This document shows positions 50,447 through 56,899 of a stretch of DNA of 64,000 nt, one piece after another; positions within the stretch are counted from its first letter, which is position 1; the number at the start of each line of letters is the position of its first letter. The stretch covers positions 24,263 to 88,262 of IMG/VR virus record IMGVR_UViG_3300045988_009865; one strand, given 5' to 3'. This DNA comes from a virus (taxonomy: Duplodnaviria > Heunggongvirae > Uroviricota > Caudoviricetes). A program made the position numbers and the translations under genes. A model generated the notes under the pieces. It worked only from the letters and a program-made list of their open reading frames with translations. It made no database searches and was not told where the DNA came from.

Positions 50447-50475
50447 TTGACTCTTTGAGTATGGTTATCTAATAT
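50447..50475 (+). promoter_or_regulatory. sigma70-like promoter (TTGACT-17-TAATAT) at head of small-gene array
   Basis: -35 50447-50452, -10 50470-50475. Confidence 0.55.
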
Positions 50476-50523
50476 TTGCATCAGACGGGCAATCAAGCCC
50501 ACTTCCTAAACTGGAGAATCAAA

Positions 50524-50730
50524 ATGCTTTACAGTCGTGAATTGATGGTTACAACTAACGTTAACACAAAGGTAAAACGTTTTTATATGCAAGTGTGCGG
50601 CGCATGGCGTAGAATATCAGAAGCTGACTATTGCAACTATGTAGAAACGGCTATCAATTCTAATTGCTACCTTACAATAAACACTAAGAAGTTTACAAGA
50701 CAGACAGCAATTTACTACTACGATAAATAA
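50524..50730 (+). CDS. small hypothetical protein (array gene 1)
   Basis: ATG 50524 after ctggagaatcaaa RBS; ORF-track start 50476 lies inside the promoter. Confidence 0.45.
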   Translation: MLYSRELMVTTNVNTKVKRFYMQVCGAWRRISEADYCNYVETAINSNCYLTINTKKFTRQTAIYYYDK

Positions 50731-50737
50731 AAAGTAC

Positions 50738-50766
50738 TTTACAAGGGGCTTAAAAGCTGGTATCTT
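50738..50766 (+). promoter_or_regulatory. type-1 cassette promoter candidate (TTTACA-17-TATCTT) with hairpin in spacer
   Basis: Conserved element agtacTTTACAaggggcttaa...ttaagcccc...ccttaaactaggagattcaaaaATG. Confidence 0.4.
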
Positions 50767-50820
50767 AAGCCCCAGATAAAGAGCTTTACTAAATTAACCC
50801 TTAAACTAGGAGATTCAAAA

Positions 50821-51201
50821 ATGGCTTATCGTGCACCGAAATTCATCAACAAAGACAACTTCCGCAACGCACTGGAGAAGTCACTTGATGAAAAATTTAA
50901 CGGCAAATTGATTGTTGTTCACGCATTCAATTTTAAGTATGATATTAACGGGAATAAAATCAACCATTACACGGCAACCATGTTAGATGGTACACTATCA
51001 AGTGAAAAAGCTGTACTGAATGCACTTGCAGGACGTGGTAAAAACCTGATAAGATGCGATAAGAGACGTTATCAGGGTGGCGCATATGGTTATGATGATG
51101 CTGTTTATCATCTTGAAAATATGGGCTATTCAGTGGAAAAAGCTGGAGTGTCTCAAATAATCGGCAGTGACGGCTATGTGACAATTTTCAAAATTAACTA
51201 A
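50821..51201 (+). CDS. small hypothetical protein (array gene 2)
   Basis: 126 aa; conserved leader and RBS. Confidence 0.5.
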   Translation: MAYRAPKFINKDNFRNALEKSLDEKFNGKLIVVHAFNFKYDINGNKINHYTATMLDGTLSSEKAVLNALAGRGKNLIRCDKRRYQGGAYGYDDAVYHLENMGYSVEKAGVSQIIGSDGYVTIFKIN

Positions 51202-51209
51202 TAAAGTAC

Positions 51210-51238
51210 TTTACAGGGGGCTTATAGTTCGATAAAGT
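51210..51238 (+). promoter_or_regulatory. type-1 cassette promoter candidate (TTTACA-17-TAAAGT)
   Basis: Same cassette; stem carries compensatory changes. Confidence 0.4.
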
Positions 51239-51289
51239 AAGCCCCAGATAAAGAGCTTTACCACTAAATCCTAAATTGGAGATTCAAAA

Positions 51290-51580
51290 ATGGCTATTAT
51301 TAAAAACGTTGTAATTCCTGCAAAAACTCGTGATGACGCTCGCATCATGGCGAAAAAGTTAGGCGGGAAAGTGGTTGACAACGGAAAACAAACTGCTGTA
51401 AGGTGGAACGTGAAGGCGGATAAACAAATGAATTTAAAAAATTCACCAATAAACCTTTTTACATGTGTAAACACTATCGGGAAAACGAATGTATACACTA
51501 AAAAGGCATATATCAGACGCATCGCCATGACGTCACCTATTCGTACAATGAGAAGTCATGCAAAGCTGAAAATTAAGTAA
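51290..51580 (+). CDS. small hypothetical protein (array gene 3)
   Basis: 96 aa; conserved leader. Confidence 0.5.
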   Translation: MAIIKNVVIPAKTRDDARIMAKKLGGKVVDNGKQTAVRWNVKADKQMNLKNSPINLFTCVNTIGKTNVYTKKAYIRRIAMTSPIRTMRSHAKLKIK

Positions 51581-51588
51581 TAGAGTAC

Positions 51589-51617
51589 TTTACAGGGGGC
51601 TTAAAAGCTGATATCTT
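51589..51617 (+). promoter_or_regulatory. type-1 cassette promoter candidate (TTTACA-17-TATCTT)
   Basis: Same cassette. Confidence 0.4.
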
Positions 51618-51670
51618 AAGCCCCAGATAAAGAGCTTTACCACTCAATCCTTAAACTAGGAGATTCAAAA

Positions 51671-52183
51671 ATGAAAACTGTAGACGCTACCTTTGAAGTT
51701 GTAAAAGAAAAATTTTCCATCATTTACGAAGCTGTCAATTGCTACGAAGCAAGCCATAATCTTGATAATTGGAAGTTTACAGATGACCATCAAGGTGGTG
51801 TGACTATTAAAAACCCCAACTGTCAGCGTAATGGATTTAAATATGCAATTCCTTTACATTACAGCCTTAAACAGCTTTCAATTGACTATGCAAAACAAGG
51901 CCGGGAAAATCCATCGAAAGAGGCTTACATCAGCTTACAGAAAGAACTAGAAAGAGATTTAGAGGCTTCAGAATATAACATCGCCGCGAAAGTTGTAGAT
52001 GCAAACGGTAGCACGGTTTTAGAAAGTTTTTATATTGGTTATGCTTTCGATTGGTGCTACAGTGACGGCGATGATTTAGATGACAGACTAAAAGAGGAAG
52101 TGAACAACGCAGACGCAGAATCTGAAGTATTAGAACGCTTGGAAGCATTAAAAGATTCAGTGATGAATATCTTTAAGAACTAA
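51671..52183 (+). CDS. small acidic hypothetical protein (array gene 4)
   Basis: 170 aa; D/E-rich. Confidence 0.5.
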   Translation: MKTVDATFEVVKEKFSIIYEAVNCYEASHNLDNWKFTDDHQGGVTIKNPNCQRNGFKYAIPLHYSLKQLSIDYAKQGRENPSKEAYISLQKELERDLEASEYNIAAKVVDANGSTVLESFYIGYAFDWCYSDGDDLDDRLKEEVNNADAESEVLERLEALKDSVMNIFKN

Positions 52184-52193
52184 ATAGATTTCT

Positions 52194-55039: not shown

Positions 55040-55102
55040 TCAGTACAAAGATACCAACTTTCAACTTAAGGCCCATACAGGGCCATTTAAAGGGCTTAAA
55101 TC

Positions 55103-55336
55103 ATGCTTACAACCATTTACCTCATCCTTTCCATTTGTAACGGTCATTCATGCGATTTTGAAGAGCTTGGGGAGTTTACAGGGAGTAAAGAAAATGCTAT
55201 TCAGGTTTGCCAGATAGCAAGACAAGACTACCCCGCCAGTGATGATATTCAATGTTACTTTAAGACAGAAGACAGCGACGGCGTTTATTTTGATAGCGTT
55301 GACGGAAAACATGAAATTATCATAGAAAAAGACTAG
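55103..55336 (+). CDS. small hypothetical protein (array gene 12, no conserved cassette)
   Basis: 77 aa; preceded by ggcccatacagggcc hairpin. Confidence 0.35.
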   Translation: MLTTIYLILSICNGHSCDFEELGEFTGSKENAIQVCQIARQDYPASDDIQCYFKTEDSDGVYFDSVDGKHEIIIEKD

Positions 55337-55362
55337 ACAAGCCGGATAAAAATCTGTAAATT
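55334..55362 (+). promoter_or_regulatory. type-2 cassette promoter (TAGACA-17-TAAATT)
   Basis: Followed by leader with gggagg/cctccc hairpin. Confidence 0.5.
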
Positions 55363-55425
55363 GTCAATCAACGGGAGGCAATGGCCTCCCTACTAAATAA
55401 AGCCCTTAAACTAGGAGATTCTAAA

Positions 55426-55767
55426 ATGGCTTATGTAACCGTAGTAACCGATAAAGCGGATTCATCTTGGTCAACTCAAGTAAGCGATAAGATGTCACCT
55501 ATGCAGTGCCTAAAATACTTTGAGCAGTGGAATAAAGGTGAGGATGTAAGCCCCTTTCAAGTGATGCAGATTATCCATGTAGACAACGAAGGGAATAAAA
55601 CGACGCTGAATAGTGAGCACTATGTAAGCCGTTTTGAAACGAGAAGTAAAACAATGAAACTTTTACGTGAATCCGGTTACTCCCATATCGCCGCGTTAAT
55701 CTGGGATGACCTGCTAAAAAGACAGCGTATCAGCTATGTAAAACCTGAAAAAATATTCATCAGTTAA
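55426..55767 (+). CDS. small hypothetical protein (array gene 13)
   Basis: Start refined to ATG 55426; ORF-track start 55381 would translate the conserved leader. Confidence 0.45.
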   Translation: MAYVTVVTDKADSSWSTQVSDKMSPMQCLKYFEQWNKGEDVSPFQVMQIIHVDNEGNKTTLNSEHYVSRFETRSKTMKLLRESGYSHIAALIWDDLLKRQRISYVKPEKIFIS

Positions 55768-55799
55768 TCAATAACTTACAAAAAACTTTTAAAAAGATG

Positions 55800-55828
55800 T
55801 TGACAACCCCTCTTGACATTGGTAACTT
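55800..55828 (+). promoter_or_regulatory. possible promoter (TTGACA-17-TAACTT) overlapping cccctc/gagggg hairpin
   Basis: ttgaca 55800-55805. Confidence 0.35.
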
Positions 55829-55896
55829 TGTTCGAGGGGGTTTATCTAAAAGGGATTAACTTAAAAGATTCTTTATAGATAGACTTAAAAAATTGC

Positions 55897-55925
55897 TTGC
55901 AATCAGATATCAAAACAAGTAAATT
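55897..55925 (+). promoter_or_regulatory. type-2 cassette promoter (TTGCAA-17-TAAATT)
   Basis: Same leader as 53759. Confidence 0.45.
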
Positions 55926-55989
55926 ACTCATCAACGGGGAGGCAATAACCTCCCTACTAAGTAAAGTCCTTAAACTAGGAGATTCTAAA

Positions 55990-56520
55990 ATGAACAAGTT
56001 CAAAGCTATCAACTATATTCGTTCAAATAATGTAATGTCTAAGCCTGTTAAAGATACCTATGAATTTCGTTGTAATGGGGTACACTTTGCAACCATTACC
56101 AAATCAGAAAACGGGGCTTATTACGTTCATCGTCGTAATGTTGCAACCGTTGTAGTCTCTCACTTTATGCAAGCTGTCGCGGAACTTCTCCCGATGTTTT
56201 TAGGTCTTTATTTAGATGAGTGTAAAAACGTTCACAGCCACGTTAAAAACCTTTTAAATAGCTATAAAATGGCTTATGAACGTTCTATCAAGTCCTTAAA
56301 CAAGTTTTACAACGCACCTGAAAATACTGTATCAATGGCCTACGATGTAAATGGTGAGGCGGTGAGTCTCTTTGAAGTGGAAGAAATCAAGCTGCATGAT
56401 TTACGCCCTAGCGGTTACTCTAAGACTCTCGGTGAAGGTTTAACGTTCAATATCAAGAACTTAGAAAAAACTTTAAAAGATATTGAAAAAGATATTGACG
56501 AGACAATCAAAAATCTGTAA
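55990..56520 (+). CDS. hypothetical protein (array gene 14)
   Basis: Start refined to ATG 55990 after conserved leader; 176 aa. Confidence 0.45.
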   Translation: MNKFKAINYIRSNNVMSKPVKDTYEFRCNGVHFATITKSENGAYYVHRRNVATVVVSHFMQAVAELLPMFLGLYLDECKNVHSHVKNLLNSYKMAYERSIKSLNKFYNAPENTVSMAYDVNGEAVSLFEVEEIKLHDLRPSGYSKTLGEGLTFNIKNLEKTLKDIEKDIDETIKNL

Positions 56521-56523
56521 ATT
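56495..56523 (+). promoter_or_regulatory. type-2 cassette promoter (TTGACG-17-TAAATT)
   Basis: Overlaps the 3' end of the upstream gene. Confidence 0.5.
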
Positions 56524-56588
56524 GTCAATCAACGGGGAGGGAATGACCTTCCCCACTAAGTAAAGTCCTTAAACTAGGAGATTCTAAA

Positions 56589-56837
56589 ATGGCAACTATC
56601 CGCGCAACTGTCAATGCTTATGGCTGTTATACTCTGGACGTTAAATTTGATATTGGTGGAACTGATGAGTGTTTTTCATTAGTGAAGACAGTTATCAAGC
56701 AAGTTATCCCAGATTATAACCCTACTGATGACTTCTGGAAAGACGCTGTAAAAGAGGCATTAAACGACGAGCATCACTATCATTACTGGGGTGACTTGAT
56801 TATCTCACTGTACTACAATAAACAAGGTTACAACTAA
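56589..56837 (+). CDS. small hypothetical protein (array gene 15)
   Basis: 82 aa. Confidence 0.45.
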   Translation: MATIRATVNAYGCYTLDVKFDIGGTDECFSLVKTVIKQVIPDYNPTDDFWKDAVKEALNDEHHYHYWGDLIISLYYNKQGYN

Positions 56838-56876
56838 TCGACGCAACGGGGCTAAATAGCCCCAGATACCTTCACA

Positions 56877-56899
56877 GCCCCATTTAAGGGGCTTTTTTA
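56877..56899 (+). terminator. intrinsic terminator closing the small-gene array
   Basis: agcccc-attta-ggggct hairpin then tttttt. Confidence 0.65.

Follow-up and report, generated by a model that had tools for sequence, protein, structure and literature searches.

Positions 50447-56899 of a 64,000-nucleotide (nt) stretch of the IMG/VR virus record IMGVR_UViG_3300045988_009865 (positions 24,263 to 88,262 of that record; hereafter the window) hold an array of 15 small genes, most of which follow a copy of a conserved cassette of one of two types. We propose, with a probability of roughly 0.7, that the array is made of self-contained expression modules in which the two cassette types have the roles set out below, and between which genes are exchanged by recombination. 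Each module would consist of a host sigma-70 promoter, a structured RNA element, a standard ribosome-binding leader and one small gene, occasionally two. Type-1 cassettes would carry two signals in the same 68 nt, a promoter in DNA (TTTACA-17/18-TAnnnT) and a three-tier hairpin in RNA, while the hairpin of type-2 cassettes, close to the predicted 5' end, would serve as a 5' stabiliser. Being long direct repeats, the cassettes would allow homologous recombination to delete, insert, duplicate and re-pair gene modules, producing the differences in gene content among relatives. The arrangement is best described as a set of expression and recombination modules resembling the promoter-early stem-loop (PeSL) cassettes of T4-like phages, here in the Ounavirinae and with a new, overlapping promoter/RNA-hairpin architecture.

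By its sequence, the interval is the variable (hyperplastic) small-gene region of a Felix O1-like myovirus (Felixounavirus, Ounavirinae). A query of 50400-57000 matched 256 phage records, almost all from Felixounavirus or other Ounavirinae, and the matches were mosaic, with 1-8 pieces per record covering 57-78% of the query among the records listed. The counterpart in Felix O1 is ORF14-23, flanked by a macro-domain 'phosphatase' gene and terminator t23; in the window the macro-domain gene (Pfam Macro) forms the upstream flank at 49232-50017, and in phage Bas63 the array corresponds to genes 98-111. A preliminary description, made from the letters alone, had outlined a modular array with an opening promoter TTGACT-17-TAATAT, a closing terminator, about 15 open reading frames (ORFs) of 65-187 amino acids (aa), and a conserved element ahead of 13 of them. 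This outline was recovered throughout: a consensus scan placed the promoter at 50447-50475, a hairpin plus T-run lies at 56876-56899, 15 ORFs, all on the plus strand, fill the interval, and repeat finding and pattern searches located conserved regulatory DNA ahead of 13 unrelated small genes. The cassettes comprise seven of type 1, five of type 2 and the first promoter cassette (P0), and pattern and covariance-model searches found no copy of the type-1, type-2 or leader elements outside the array within the window. Two ORFs, starting at 52565 and 55103, have no cassette; the first is probably translationally coupled to the preceding gene, which it overlaps, and the second is probably co-transcribed with gene 11, since only a small GGCCC/GGGCC hairpin lies upstream of it, 63 nt after that gene.

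The features of the array are as follows (promoters are given as hexamers with their first positions and the spacer in nt; bits, covariance-model score; dG, folding free energy in kcal/mol; z, folding z-score; pI, isoelectric point).

50447-50526, plus strand: P0, first cassette; TTGACT (50447)-17-TAATAT (50470), AT-rich upstream tract, leader hairpin GGGC/GCCC, leader CCTAAACTGGAGAAT, ATG 50524
50524-50730, plus strand: gene 1, 68 aa, phrog_5293
50726-50823, plus strand: T1a, type-1 cassette; 68-nt element 50726-50793, TTTACA-17-TATCTT, ATG 50821, 85.8 bits
50821-51201, plus strand: gene 2, 126 aa, phrog_4495
51198-51292, plus strand: T1b, type-1 cassette; element 51198-51265, TTTACA-17-TAAAGT, ATG 51290, 89.2 bits
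51290-51580, plus strand: gene 3, 96 aa, very basic (pI 11), phrog_5089
51577-51673, plus strand: T1c, type-1 cassette; element 51577-51644 (dG -27.5, z -3.8), TTTACA-17-TATCTT, ATG 51671, 86.8 bits
51671-52183, plus strand: gene 4, 170 aa, acidic (pI 4.6), phrog_4190
52181-52277, plus strand: T1d, type-1 cassette; element 52181-52247, TTTACA-17-TATGAT, ATG 52275, 76.3 bits
52275-52571, plus strand: gene 5, 98 aa
52565-52897, plus strand: gene 6, 110 aa, no cassette, 7-nt overlap with gene 5
52894-52990, plus strand: T2a, type-2 cassette; TTGATT (52894)-17-TAAATT (52917), then ACTAATCAAC, hairpin GGGGAGGG/CCTTCCCC at 52933-52953, then leader, ATG 52988
52988-53260, plus strand: gene 7, 90 aa, phrog_3436
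53254-53349, plus strand: T1e, type-1 cassette; element 53254-53321, TTTACA-17-TAAAGT, ATG 53347, 87.8 bits
53347-53751, plus strand: gene 8, 134 aa, phrog_4327
53759-53854, plus strand: T2b, type-2 cassette; TTGACA (53759)-17-TAAATT (53782), hairpin GGGGAGG/CCTCCCT at 53799-53818, ATG 53852
53852-54049, plus strand: gene 9, 65 aa, phrog_3623
54050-54144, plus strand: T1f, type-1 cassette; element 54050-54118, TTTACA-18-TATCTT, ATG 54142, 80 bits
54142-54390, plus strand: gene 10, 82 aa, phrog_9030
54384-54478, plus strand: T1g, type-1 cassette; element 54384-54451, TTTACA-17-TATCTT, ATG 54476, 90.8 bits
54476-55039, plus strand: gene 11, 187 aa, acidic (pI 4.2), predicted ADP-ribosyltransferase fold
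55103-55336, plus strand: gene 12, 77 aa, very acidic (pI 4.2), no cassette
55334-55428, plus strand: T2c, type-2 cassette; TAGACA (55334)-17-TAAATT (55357), hairpin GGGAGGC/GCCTCCC at 55373-55390, ATG 55426
55426-55767, plus strand: gene 13, 113 aa, phrog_4318
55800-55842, plus strand: 'T3', possible extra promoter-in-hairpin; TTGACA (55800)-17-TAACTT (55823), dG -19.1, z -2.5
55897-55992, plus strand: T2d, type-2 cassette; TTGCAA (55897)-17-TAAATT (55920), hairpin at 55937-55956, ATG 55990
55990-56520, plus strand: gene 14, 176 aa, phrog_4725
56495-56591, plus strand: T2e, type-2 cassette; TTGACG (56495)-17-TAAATT (56518, overlapping the gene 14 stop codon), hairpin at 56535-56555, ATG 56589
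56589-56837, plus strand: gene 15, 82 aa, phrog_4559
56849-56899, plus strand: array end; degenerate type-1 half, then intrinsic terminator, dG -26.4, z -4.7
56876-56899, plus strand: array terminator; AGCCCC-attta-AGGGGCT, then TTTTT

Promoter function of the cassettes is strongly indicated by the pattern of conserved positions. Type-1 elements were gathered from 14 genomes in four genera (Felixounavirus, Mooglevirus, Suspvirus and Kolesnikvirus), and TAnnnT followed TTTACA in all 39 genuine unique inserts between the -35 and the downstream box, at 17 nt in 36 and at 18 nt in three; 12 distinct -10 hexamers occurred among them. When 69 unique elements were aligned, the T, A and final T of the -10 were invariant, whereas its three middle bases and the rest of the surrounding loop varied. 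These three are the -10 positions most critical for sigma-70 recognition. Within the window, the consensus scan paired TTTACA with TATCTT, TAAAGT or TATGAT at 17-18 nt in seven of seven copies, and an A/T-rich tract precedes the promoter in type 1 and type 2 alike. In Kolesnikvirus cassettes whose stem is GGGGTTAC.../...TAACCCC, a clean TAnnnT is missing at 17-18 nt; their sequence would allow an extended -10 (TGnGACTAT) as a possible substitute.

This placement differs from that of the preliminary description, which had put the whole type-1 hairpin inside the -35/-10 spacer; instead, the -10 sits in the apical loop and the start of the 3' arm. The -10 candidates of that description, GATAAA and TAAAGA, were rejected because they imply a spacer of 31-33 nt while TAnnnT stands at 17-18 nt in every copy; GATAAA, 31 nt from TTTACA, is too far away to suit sigma-70. 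We also discarded a second promoter with CTTTAC of the box as its -35, there being no TAnnnT 16-18 nt downstream. The originally presumed geometry can be seen elsewhere in the window, in the intergenic region between rIIA-like and rIIB-like genes (44686-44726), where TTGACA-18-TAGAAT has a GGGGCT/AGCCCC hairpin entirely within its spacer; this site matches the covariance model weakly (19.8 bits).

The RNA structure of type 1 proved larger than first described, with an 11-pair lower stem beneath the 7-9-pair upper stem. Taken with their flanks, all seven copies fold alike into a three-tier hairpin (dG -21.5 to -27.5 kcal/mol; z -2.8 to -3.8 in six copies and -1.35 in T1a), in which 11 pairs with a single mismatch are followed by a 3x3 internal loop, 7-9 further pairs and an apical loop of 11 nt. 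Strands GGGGCUUAA and UUAAGCCCC make up the upper stem. In the lower stem, UAAAGUAcUUUA, which comprises the upstream stop-codon region and the -35, is paired with UAAAGaGCUUUA, the box AGATAAAGAGCTTTAC, whose invariance across genera would follow from this pairing. In the proposed dual coding, the spacer would be the 5' strand of the G+C-rich upper stem and the discriminator its 3' strand, with the -10 in the apical loop and the box, at about +1 to +16, as the 3' strand of the lower stem. Two earlier ideas about these sequences were set aside: that the box is a palindromic operator or an RNase E site, dropped after folding had revealed its pairing with the -35 and stop-codon region, and that the two TAAAG..CTTTAC segments are direct repeats, rejected because variants alter the pairing partner and not the equivalent position.

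Covariation across the 69 unique elements supports this structure. Paired cells amounted to 98.0%, compared with 95.1 +/- 0.3% in shuffles, and the covariation score was 0.110 compared with 0.061, with 0 of 500 shuffles reaching the observed value in either case; doubly changed cells numbered 22 where 4.6 were expected, and slid registers paired at 32-63%. In anchored counts, pairing was nearly universal at lower-stem positions 1-5 and 7-12, a mismatch was conserved at position 6, and beyond position 12 pairing was at chance level. The compensatory stem changes that the preliminary description had noticed were thus confirmed across related phages, for example G:C to U:A at lower-stem pair 9-62 in nine sequences ahead of different genes, the same change at upper-stem pair 22-49 in eight Kolesnikvirus sequences, and pair 24-46 occurring as C:G, U:G and U:A. 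Variant copies replace GAGC by GAGA opposite a change of AAAG to AAAT, and T1d is a variant copy with compensatory changes in the lower and upper stems alike. G.U pairs were frequent (73 in the lower and 40 in the upper stem) and A.C pairs nearly absent (6 and 0), which argues that the constraint acts on the plus strand, that is, on RNA. A covariance model built from the collected elements retrieved exactly the seven window copies on the plus strand (76-91 bits), with mirror matches at 27-36 bits on the minus strand, and an Rfam scan of 49900-58600 returned no family, the sole match being a sub-threshold Phe leader (E 0.62).

The strand asymmetry also bears on whether the 68-bp imperfect palindrome of type 1 is instead a DNA site, such as the operator of a dimeric repressor, a supercoiling-sensitive cruciform or a recombinase target. 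Such a site would fit a long inverted repeat centred on the promoter, with a box (TAAAG-AG-CTTTA) that is itself palindromic and overlaps +1, a typical repressor position, and it would fit crossovers that fall in the core; the authors who described PeSL cassettes speculated on a protein that binds the GGGG...CCCC stem (PMC2839356). However, 113 G.T against 6 mirror A.C combinations would not be expected of a double-stranded site or a two-sided cruciform, and the stems vary by compensatory substitution, leaving no fixed recognition sequence. Nor is a recombinase needed, as the exchanged cores are identical over ~30 nt and homology suffices. We give the DNA-site explanation a small chance of being correct.

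Where the hairpin can form is set by the predicted type-1 start site, which lies within the hairpin's 3' strand, ~7 nt past the -10, on either the final C of CCCC or the A of AGATAAAG. With a start there, the cassette's own transcript could not form the hairpin, and only RNA reading through from upstream could, so that the structure would functionally belong to the 3' end of the upstream cistron. In such read-through RNA it would mark that end, could act as an RNase III-type processing site and/or as a 3'-end stabiliser or attenuator, and would insulate neighbouring modules. A parallel exists in the T7 early genes, which are separated by imperfect RNase III hairpins of about two helical turns with an internal loop (for example, R1.1); unlike type 1, the T7 sites are not known to be promoters or sequence repeats of one another. 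Escherichia coli RNase III substrates typically span two helical turns, and an internal loop limits cleavage to one strand, leaving a protective 3' hairpin on the upstream mRNA (PMC1540722). The type-1 fold, with about two turns and an internal loop, resembles these substrates and may be cleaved in the same way. A more specific, tentative and less probable version of the proposal is that type 1 is a sigma-70 promoter in DNA and an RNase III-type hairpin in read-through RNA, with processed and initiated mRNAs sharing a near-identical 5' end (AGAUAAAG...), the upstream mRNA retaining a protective 3' hairpin and the invariant 3' strand serving as the crossover site between genera.

Type-2 cassettes follow a different plan, with a TTGACA-like -35, 17 nt, TAAATT, then ATCAAC and a hairpin GGGGAGG.../...CCUCCCC. 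The TTGACA-17-TAAATT promoter and leader hairpin of the preliminary description were found in five copies, with a variable -35. The consensus scan also listed P0 and three of the five type-2 promoters, those of T2a and T2d being read from sequence and alignment. A comparison of 43 unique type-2 copies showed at least six unrelated spacer sequences but a preserved spacing of 17 nt (18 nt in one copy), along with a constant TAnnnT and a constant T and G in the -35. G.U pairs in the type-2 hairpin again favour the plus strand. The position of ATCAAC puts the predicted start 3-4 nt ahead of the hairpin, which suggests a 5'-terminal stabiliser. Stem-loops of the ompA type, which are reported to protect E. 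coli mRNAs from 5'-end-dependent decay, offer a likeness, the type-2 hairpin lying ~3-4 nt from the predicted 5' end.

Both cassette types end in a common leader, CCTTAAACTAGGAGATTC in nine cassettes with at most one mismatch (0.08 expected by chance) and the variant CCTAAAYTGGAGA in four, so that all 13 read CCT(T)AAAYT(A)GGAGA, 6-8 nt, ATG. The conserved CCU 5' of the Shine-Dalgarno sequence can pair with it (UCCU-UAAACU-AGGA; 13 leaders, for example 51648-51662). Between the two leader variants, an indel affecting both sides takes away one U-A pair (CCT-TAAACT-AGG versus CC-TAAACT-GG), and Kolesnikvirus leaders carry CCUU...AAGG. Judging from RNAfold output, this pairing may be a weak ribosome-site hairpin that tunes translation.

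The conservation of both promoter types speaks to the possibility of a single operon, in which one transcript would run from 50447 with no internal promoters, the repeats would be only inter-cistronic RNA signals and the hexamers would be coincidental. The hairpins are indeed well supported as RNA structures, and the AT-rich region yields 37 promoter-like sites in the consensus scan where 20.6 are expected. Coincidence would nevertheless have to account for TAnnnT at an invariant 17-18 nt from an invariant TTTACA in 39 of 39 inserts despite a variable loop. An RNA-only element leaves unexplained why the type-2 -35 and -10 are kept across at least six unrelated spacers, and the type-2 hairpins lie downstream of the promoter motifs and not over them. 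One long transcript from 50447 is thus unlikely.

Gains and losses of genes between related phages break within cassettes. A gene-family table of the 14 genomes revealed a shared backbone order with modules present or absent (for example, genes 1, 2, 3, 4, 9 and 10), extra modules in relatives (x26, x28, x30 and x6), one family (x3) at differing positions, a tandem duplication in Michonne and a permuted gene order in Kolesnikvirus; genes 5 and 6 were adjacent in every relative compared. In alignments with ten relatives, 41 of the 63 internal block ends fell inside cassettes, which occupy 20% of the region, and the remainder mostly lay no more than 40 nt upstream of one. SUT_S920 captures such an event: it lacks gene 10 and has a single cassette between the homologues of genes 9 and 11, which is chimeric, its left part matching T1f base for base and its right part T1g, with the crossover inside the shared core ATCTTAAGCCCCAGATAAAGAGCTTTAC.

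Genes and cassettes are also re-paired, as one gene can follow different cassette variants in different phages. The gene 10 module is present or absent among relatives, and its upstream cassette is of type 1 here, though not in Michonne or SUSP2. Between the window and Mooglevirus Michonne, the 95 nt upstream of orthologues are 79-87% identical, compared with 64-76% for the genes themselves, and within the window T1e and T1b share 99% identity over 90 nt. One module of Citrobacter phage Michonne is tandemly duplicated at 6469-7340, gp101 and gp102 being the copies; where they meet, the ATG of one cassette runs straight into the CTTTACA of the next (…AAAATG|CTTTACATGGGG…), leaving an 'empty' cassette without a gene.

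Beyond this window, type 1 matched 274 phage records, including Erwinia, Hafnia and Cronobacter Kolesnikviruses, and type 2 matched 247, all Ounavirinae-type apart from oddly named ones. Two of the latter, Staphylococcus phage SA1 (GU169904.1) and a Campylobacter phage record, carry enterobacterial Felix O1-type cassettes, and probably contain Felix O1-like sequence through contamination or mis-assembly. In IMG/VR, the contigs with more than one copy of the box were all ~54-94 kb long, mostly 81-94 kb, and single box matches in 20 small or mid-sized contigs were not type-1 elements according to the covariance model. Type-1 homologues in Kolesnikviruses have the stem GGUGUUUAU/AUAAGCACC, and these phages also possess further kinds of cassette with a different leader (CCTTAnAAAGGAAT). 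The elements are therefore conserved in related genomes, having been found in four Ounavirinae genera; the preliminary description had named a lack of such conservation as grounds for abandoning its view.

This distribution leaves very little room for selfish repeats, that is, mobile palindromes without an expression role like repetitive extragenic palindromic (REP) sequences or miniature inverted-repeat transposable elements (MITEs): the cassettes are intergenic palindromes present in multiple copies, which resemble one another slightly more within a genome (0.84-0.90) than between genera (0.74-0.80), but they keep a constant orientation and register to the upstream stop codon and downstream ATG, always include promoter hexamers and a ribosome site, occupy a single region with no copies elsewhere in the 64 kb on either strand beyond the mirror matches, lack terminal repeats and target duplications, and are kept at orthologous positions in four genera.

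Parts of these repeats have been recorded before. The Felix O1 genome paper reported a 57-bp repeat (CTTTACATGGGGCTTAAAAGTCTGTAAAGTAAGCCCCAGATAAAGAGCTTTACCACT) between genes 15/16 and 19/20 and a 39-bp repeat (TTGACACTGG...TAAATTACACATCAAC) between genes 18/19 and 20/21; by sequence, these are the cores of type 1 and type 2. That paper left the repeats uninterpreted, named five other candidate promoters and called transcriptional regulation unknown. The GenBank record of wV8 annotates the same elements as DR_1 to DR_9 in this region, without mention in the wV8 paper, and the ASO1A record annotates type-2 copies as a promoter plus 'terminator', from automatic predictors. In the searchable literature we found no description of the promoter-in-hairpin geometry, of the extended structure and its covariation, or of a connection with module exchange, nor any paper that ties Felix O1-type repeats to PeSL cassettes.

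PeSL cassettes have been described in the T4-like phages RB49/phi1, PST/T4 and nt-1/KVP40 (PMC2839356; PMC4122927), and in the searchable literature only in T4-like phages. Like the elements described here, they recur in hyperplastic regions between small ORFs without assigned function, and each short, conserved intergenic unit combines an AT-rich tract with a sigma-70-type early promoter, a stem-loop, a Shine-Dalgarno sequence and a start codon. Their stem-loops are G+C-rich and often GGGG...CCCC, comparable to GGGGCTTAA/TTAAGCCCC and GGGGAGG/CCTCCCC here (dG -16 to -27.5 kcal/mol), and the PST/T4 promoter consensus TTTACW-N17-TAYWAT nearly equals that of type 1. In both systems, indels and replacements between close relatives map to cassettes, with chimeric cassettes at crossovers. 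A further trait of PeSL cassettes is that neighbouring copies recombine to give mini-circles. The resemblance is one of design, between a T4-like lineage on one side and the Ounavirinae on the other, and the details differ. The PeSL stem-loop lies just upstream of the promoter (PMC4122927), whereas here it overlaps the promoter (type 1) or follows the start (type 2). Type 1 also forms a much longer structure, of ~20 pairs interrupted by a 3x3 internal loop, with covariation and plus-strand asymmetry.

The 15 products of the array fall into 15 different PHROG families, all without an assigned function; none matched Pfam, and by BLASTP none clusters with another. Two strongly acidic products had been singled out in the preliminary description as possible DNA mimics, and both are acidic (51671-52183, pI 4.6; 54476-55039, pI 4.2), as is a third (55103-55336, pI 4.2). 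For 54476-55039 (gene 11) the mimic idea is contradicted by an enzyme-like ADP-ribosyltransferase (ART) fold with conserved candidate H-Y-E residues in its AlphaFold2 (AF2) model (predicted local distance difference test (pLDDT) 78.5, predicted template modelling score (pTM) 0.79). H5 (in YHGT, strand 1), Y36/Y38 and E86 are invariant or nearly so among 14 homologues and, by strand position, are candidates for an H-Y-E triad. Gene 11 had no sequence-level Pfam or PDB match, and a profile search of the PDB gave noise only. The model makes gene 11 a candidate enzyme and not a DNA mimic. Its homologue is Bas63 gp107, for which the PhageMaP preprint reports weak Tpt1-like similarity and greater importance of the gene in strain S17-1. 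Gene 4 (51671-52183) has a confident AF2 model (pLDDT 85) with no informative match in a fold search.

The ART-fold gene 11 is followed by the acidic gene 12 (together 54476-55336), and the macro-domain gene (49232-50017) lies just upstream of the array. One might speculate that gene 12 acts as an inhibitor or partner of gene 11, and the macro-domain protein is possibly an ADP-ribose-processing enzyme.

Several points weigh against the array as a set of autonomous, PeSL-like modules. The TTTACA -35 and several -10 hexamers match the consensus at only four of six positions, and the G+C-rich stretch between the -10 and +1 could make the promoters weak or conditional. PeSL stem-loops were shown to terminate transcription, whereas the terminator scan found no U tract after any cassette hairpin, so that these are not canonical terminators; in that scan only 56876-56899 had the properties of an intrinsic terminator, and the cassette hairpins precede AGAUAAAG or ACUAAAUA. 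The covariation stems from a few lineage-level changes and not from many independent events, and the binomial p of ~1e-14 for breakpoints in cassettes is inflated by the relatives' shared ancestry and by alignments that run into repeats. The searchable literature yielded no transcriptome of a Felix O1-type phage and no start-site or RNA 3'-end maps for any member of the Ounavirinae. Reverse-transcription PCR in Felix O1 found that the homologues ORF16, 20, 21 and 22 peak at 5 min and placed ORF14, 17, 19 and 23 at 25 min (PMC3185647), so the array is not uniformly immediate-early, and expression timing does not follow cassette type. The host-takeover role suggested in the preliminary description is plausible, given the four 5-min peaks and one predicted ART fold.

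Further repeats and structures occur in and around the array. The 'T3' stem CCCCTC/GAGGGG spans spacer and discriminator; no gene follows directly, T2d lies 95 nt downstream, the -10 is weak and the consensus scan did not list the site. At 56849-56870, GGGGCTAAATAGCCCCAGATAC (GGGGCTA-aa-TAGCCCC-AGATAC) looks like the decayed remains of a type-1 upper stem and of the first part of the box; it has neither a -35 nor a -10 and is comparable to the 'half PeSLs' of T4-like phages. Directly 3' of the array is a ~1.6-kb non-coding stretch (56900-58480) dense in short repeats, including CTTGTTA/CTGTTAAGA units with an 11-nt period (57354-57425 and 57639-57790), four to five tandem 12-nt units GAAGGCTTGTTA (58245-58308) and scattered CTATAAAG motifs. 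Several relatives' GenBank records begin or end beside the array, so this stretch may hold a genome terminus and/or a replication or packaging site. On the other side, a 20-nt motif, TTCATTTTnnnAnTGTGCAG, occurs four times at 50089-50265 with copies 39-73 nt apart, within the non-coding gap of 430 nt that separates the macro-domain gene from the first array promoter; Kolesnikvirus SPARTY has a similar repeated motif, CATTTTCAATTTGTGCATAG, in the same gap (3552-4010). These repeats could be protein-binding sites or another class of promoter.

If correct, the proposal would explain how transcription is laid out in the variable region of Felix O1-type phages, which are widely used in the typing and biocontrol of Salmonella and E. 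coli, a question that the genome paper left open. Shuffling of promoter/stem-loop modules, known only from T4-like phages, would extend to an unrelated subfamily of myoviruses, suggesting that it is a general, convergent means by which virulent phages try out and swap small accessory genes. The cassettes would flag autonomous, swappable genes that are natural candidates for host-takeover or anti-defence screens, one of them a predicted ADP-ribosyltransferase whose Bas63 homologue is conditionally important. The overlap of promoter and RNA hairpin makes for a compact layout, which could find reuse as an insulated expression part. Should the dual coding of type 1 hold true, it would represent a regulatory and recombinational architecture undescribed for any phage and a compact natural insulator.

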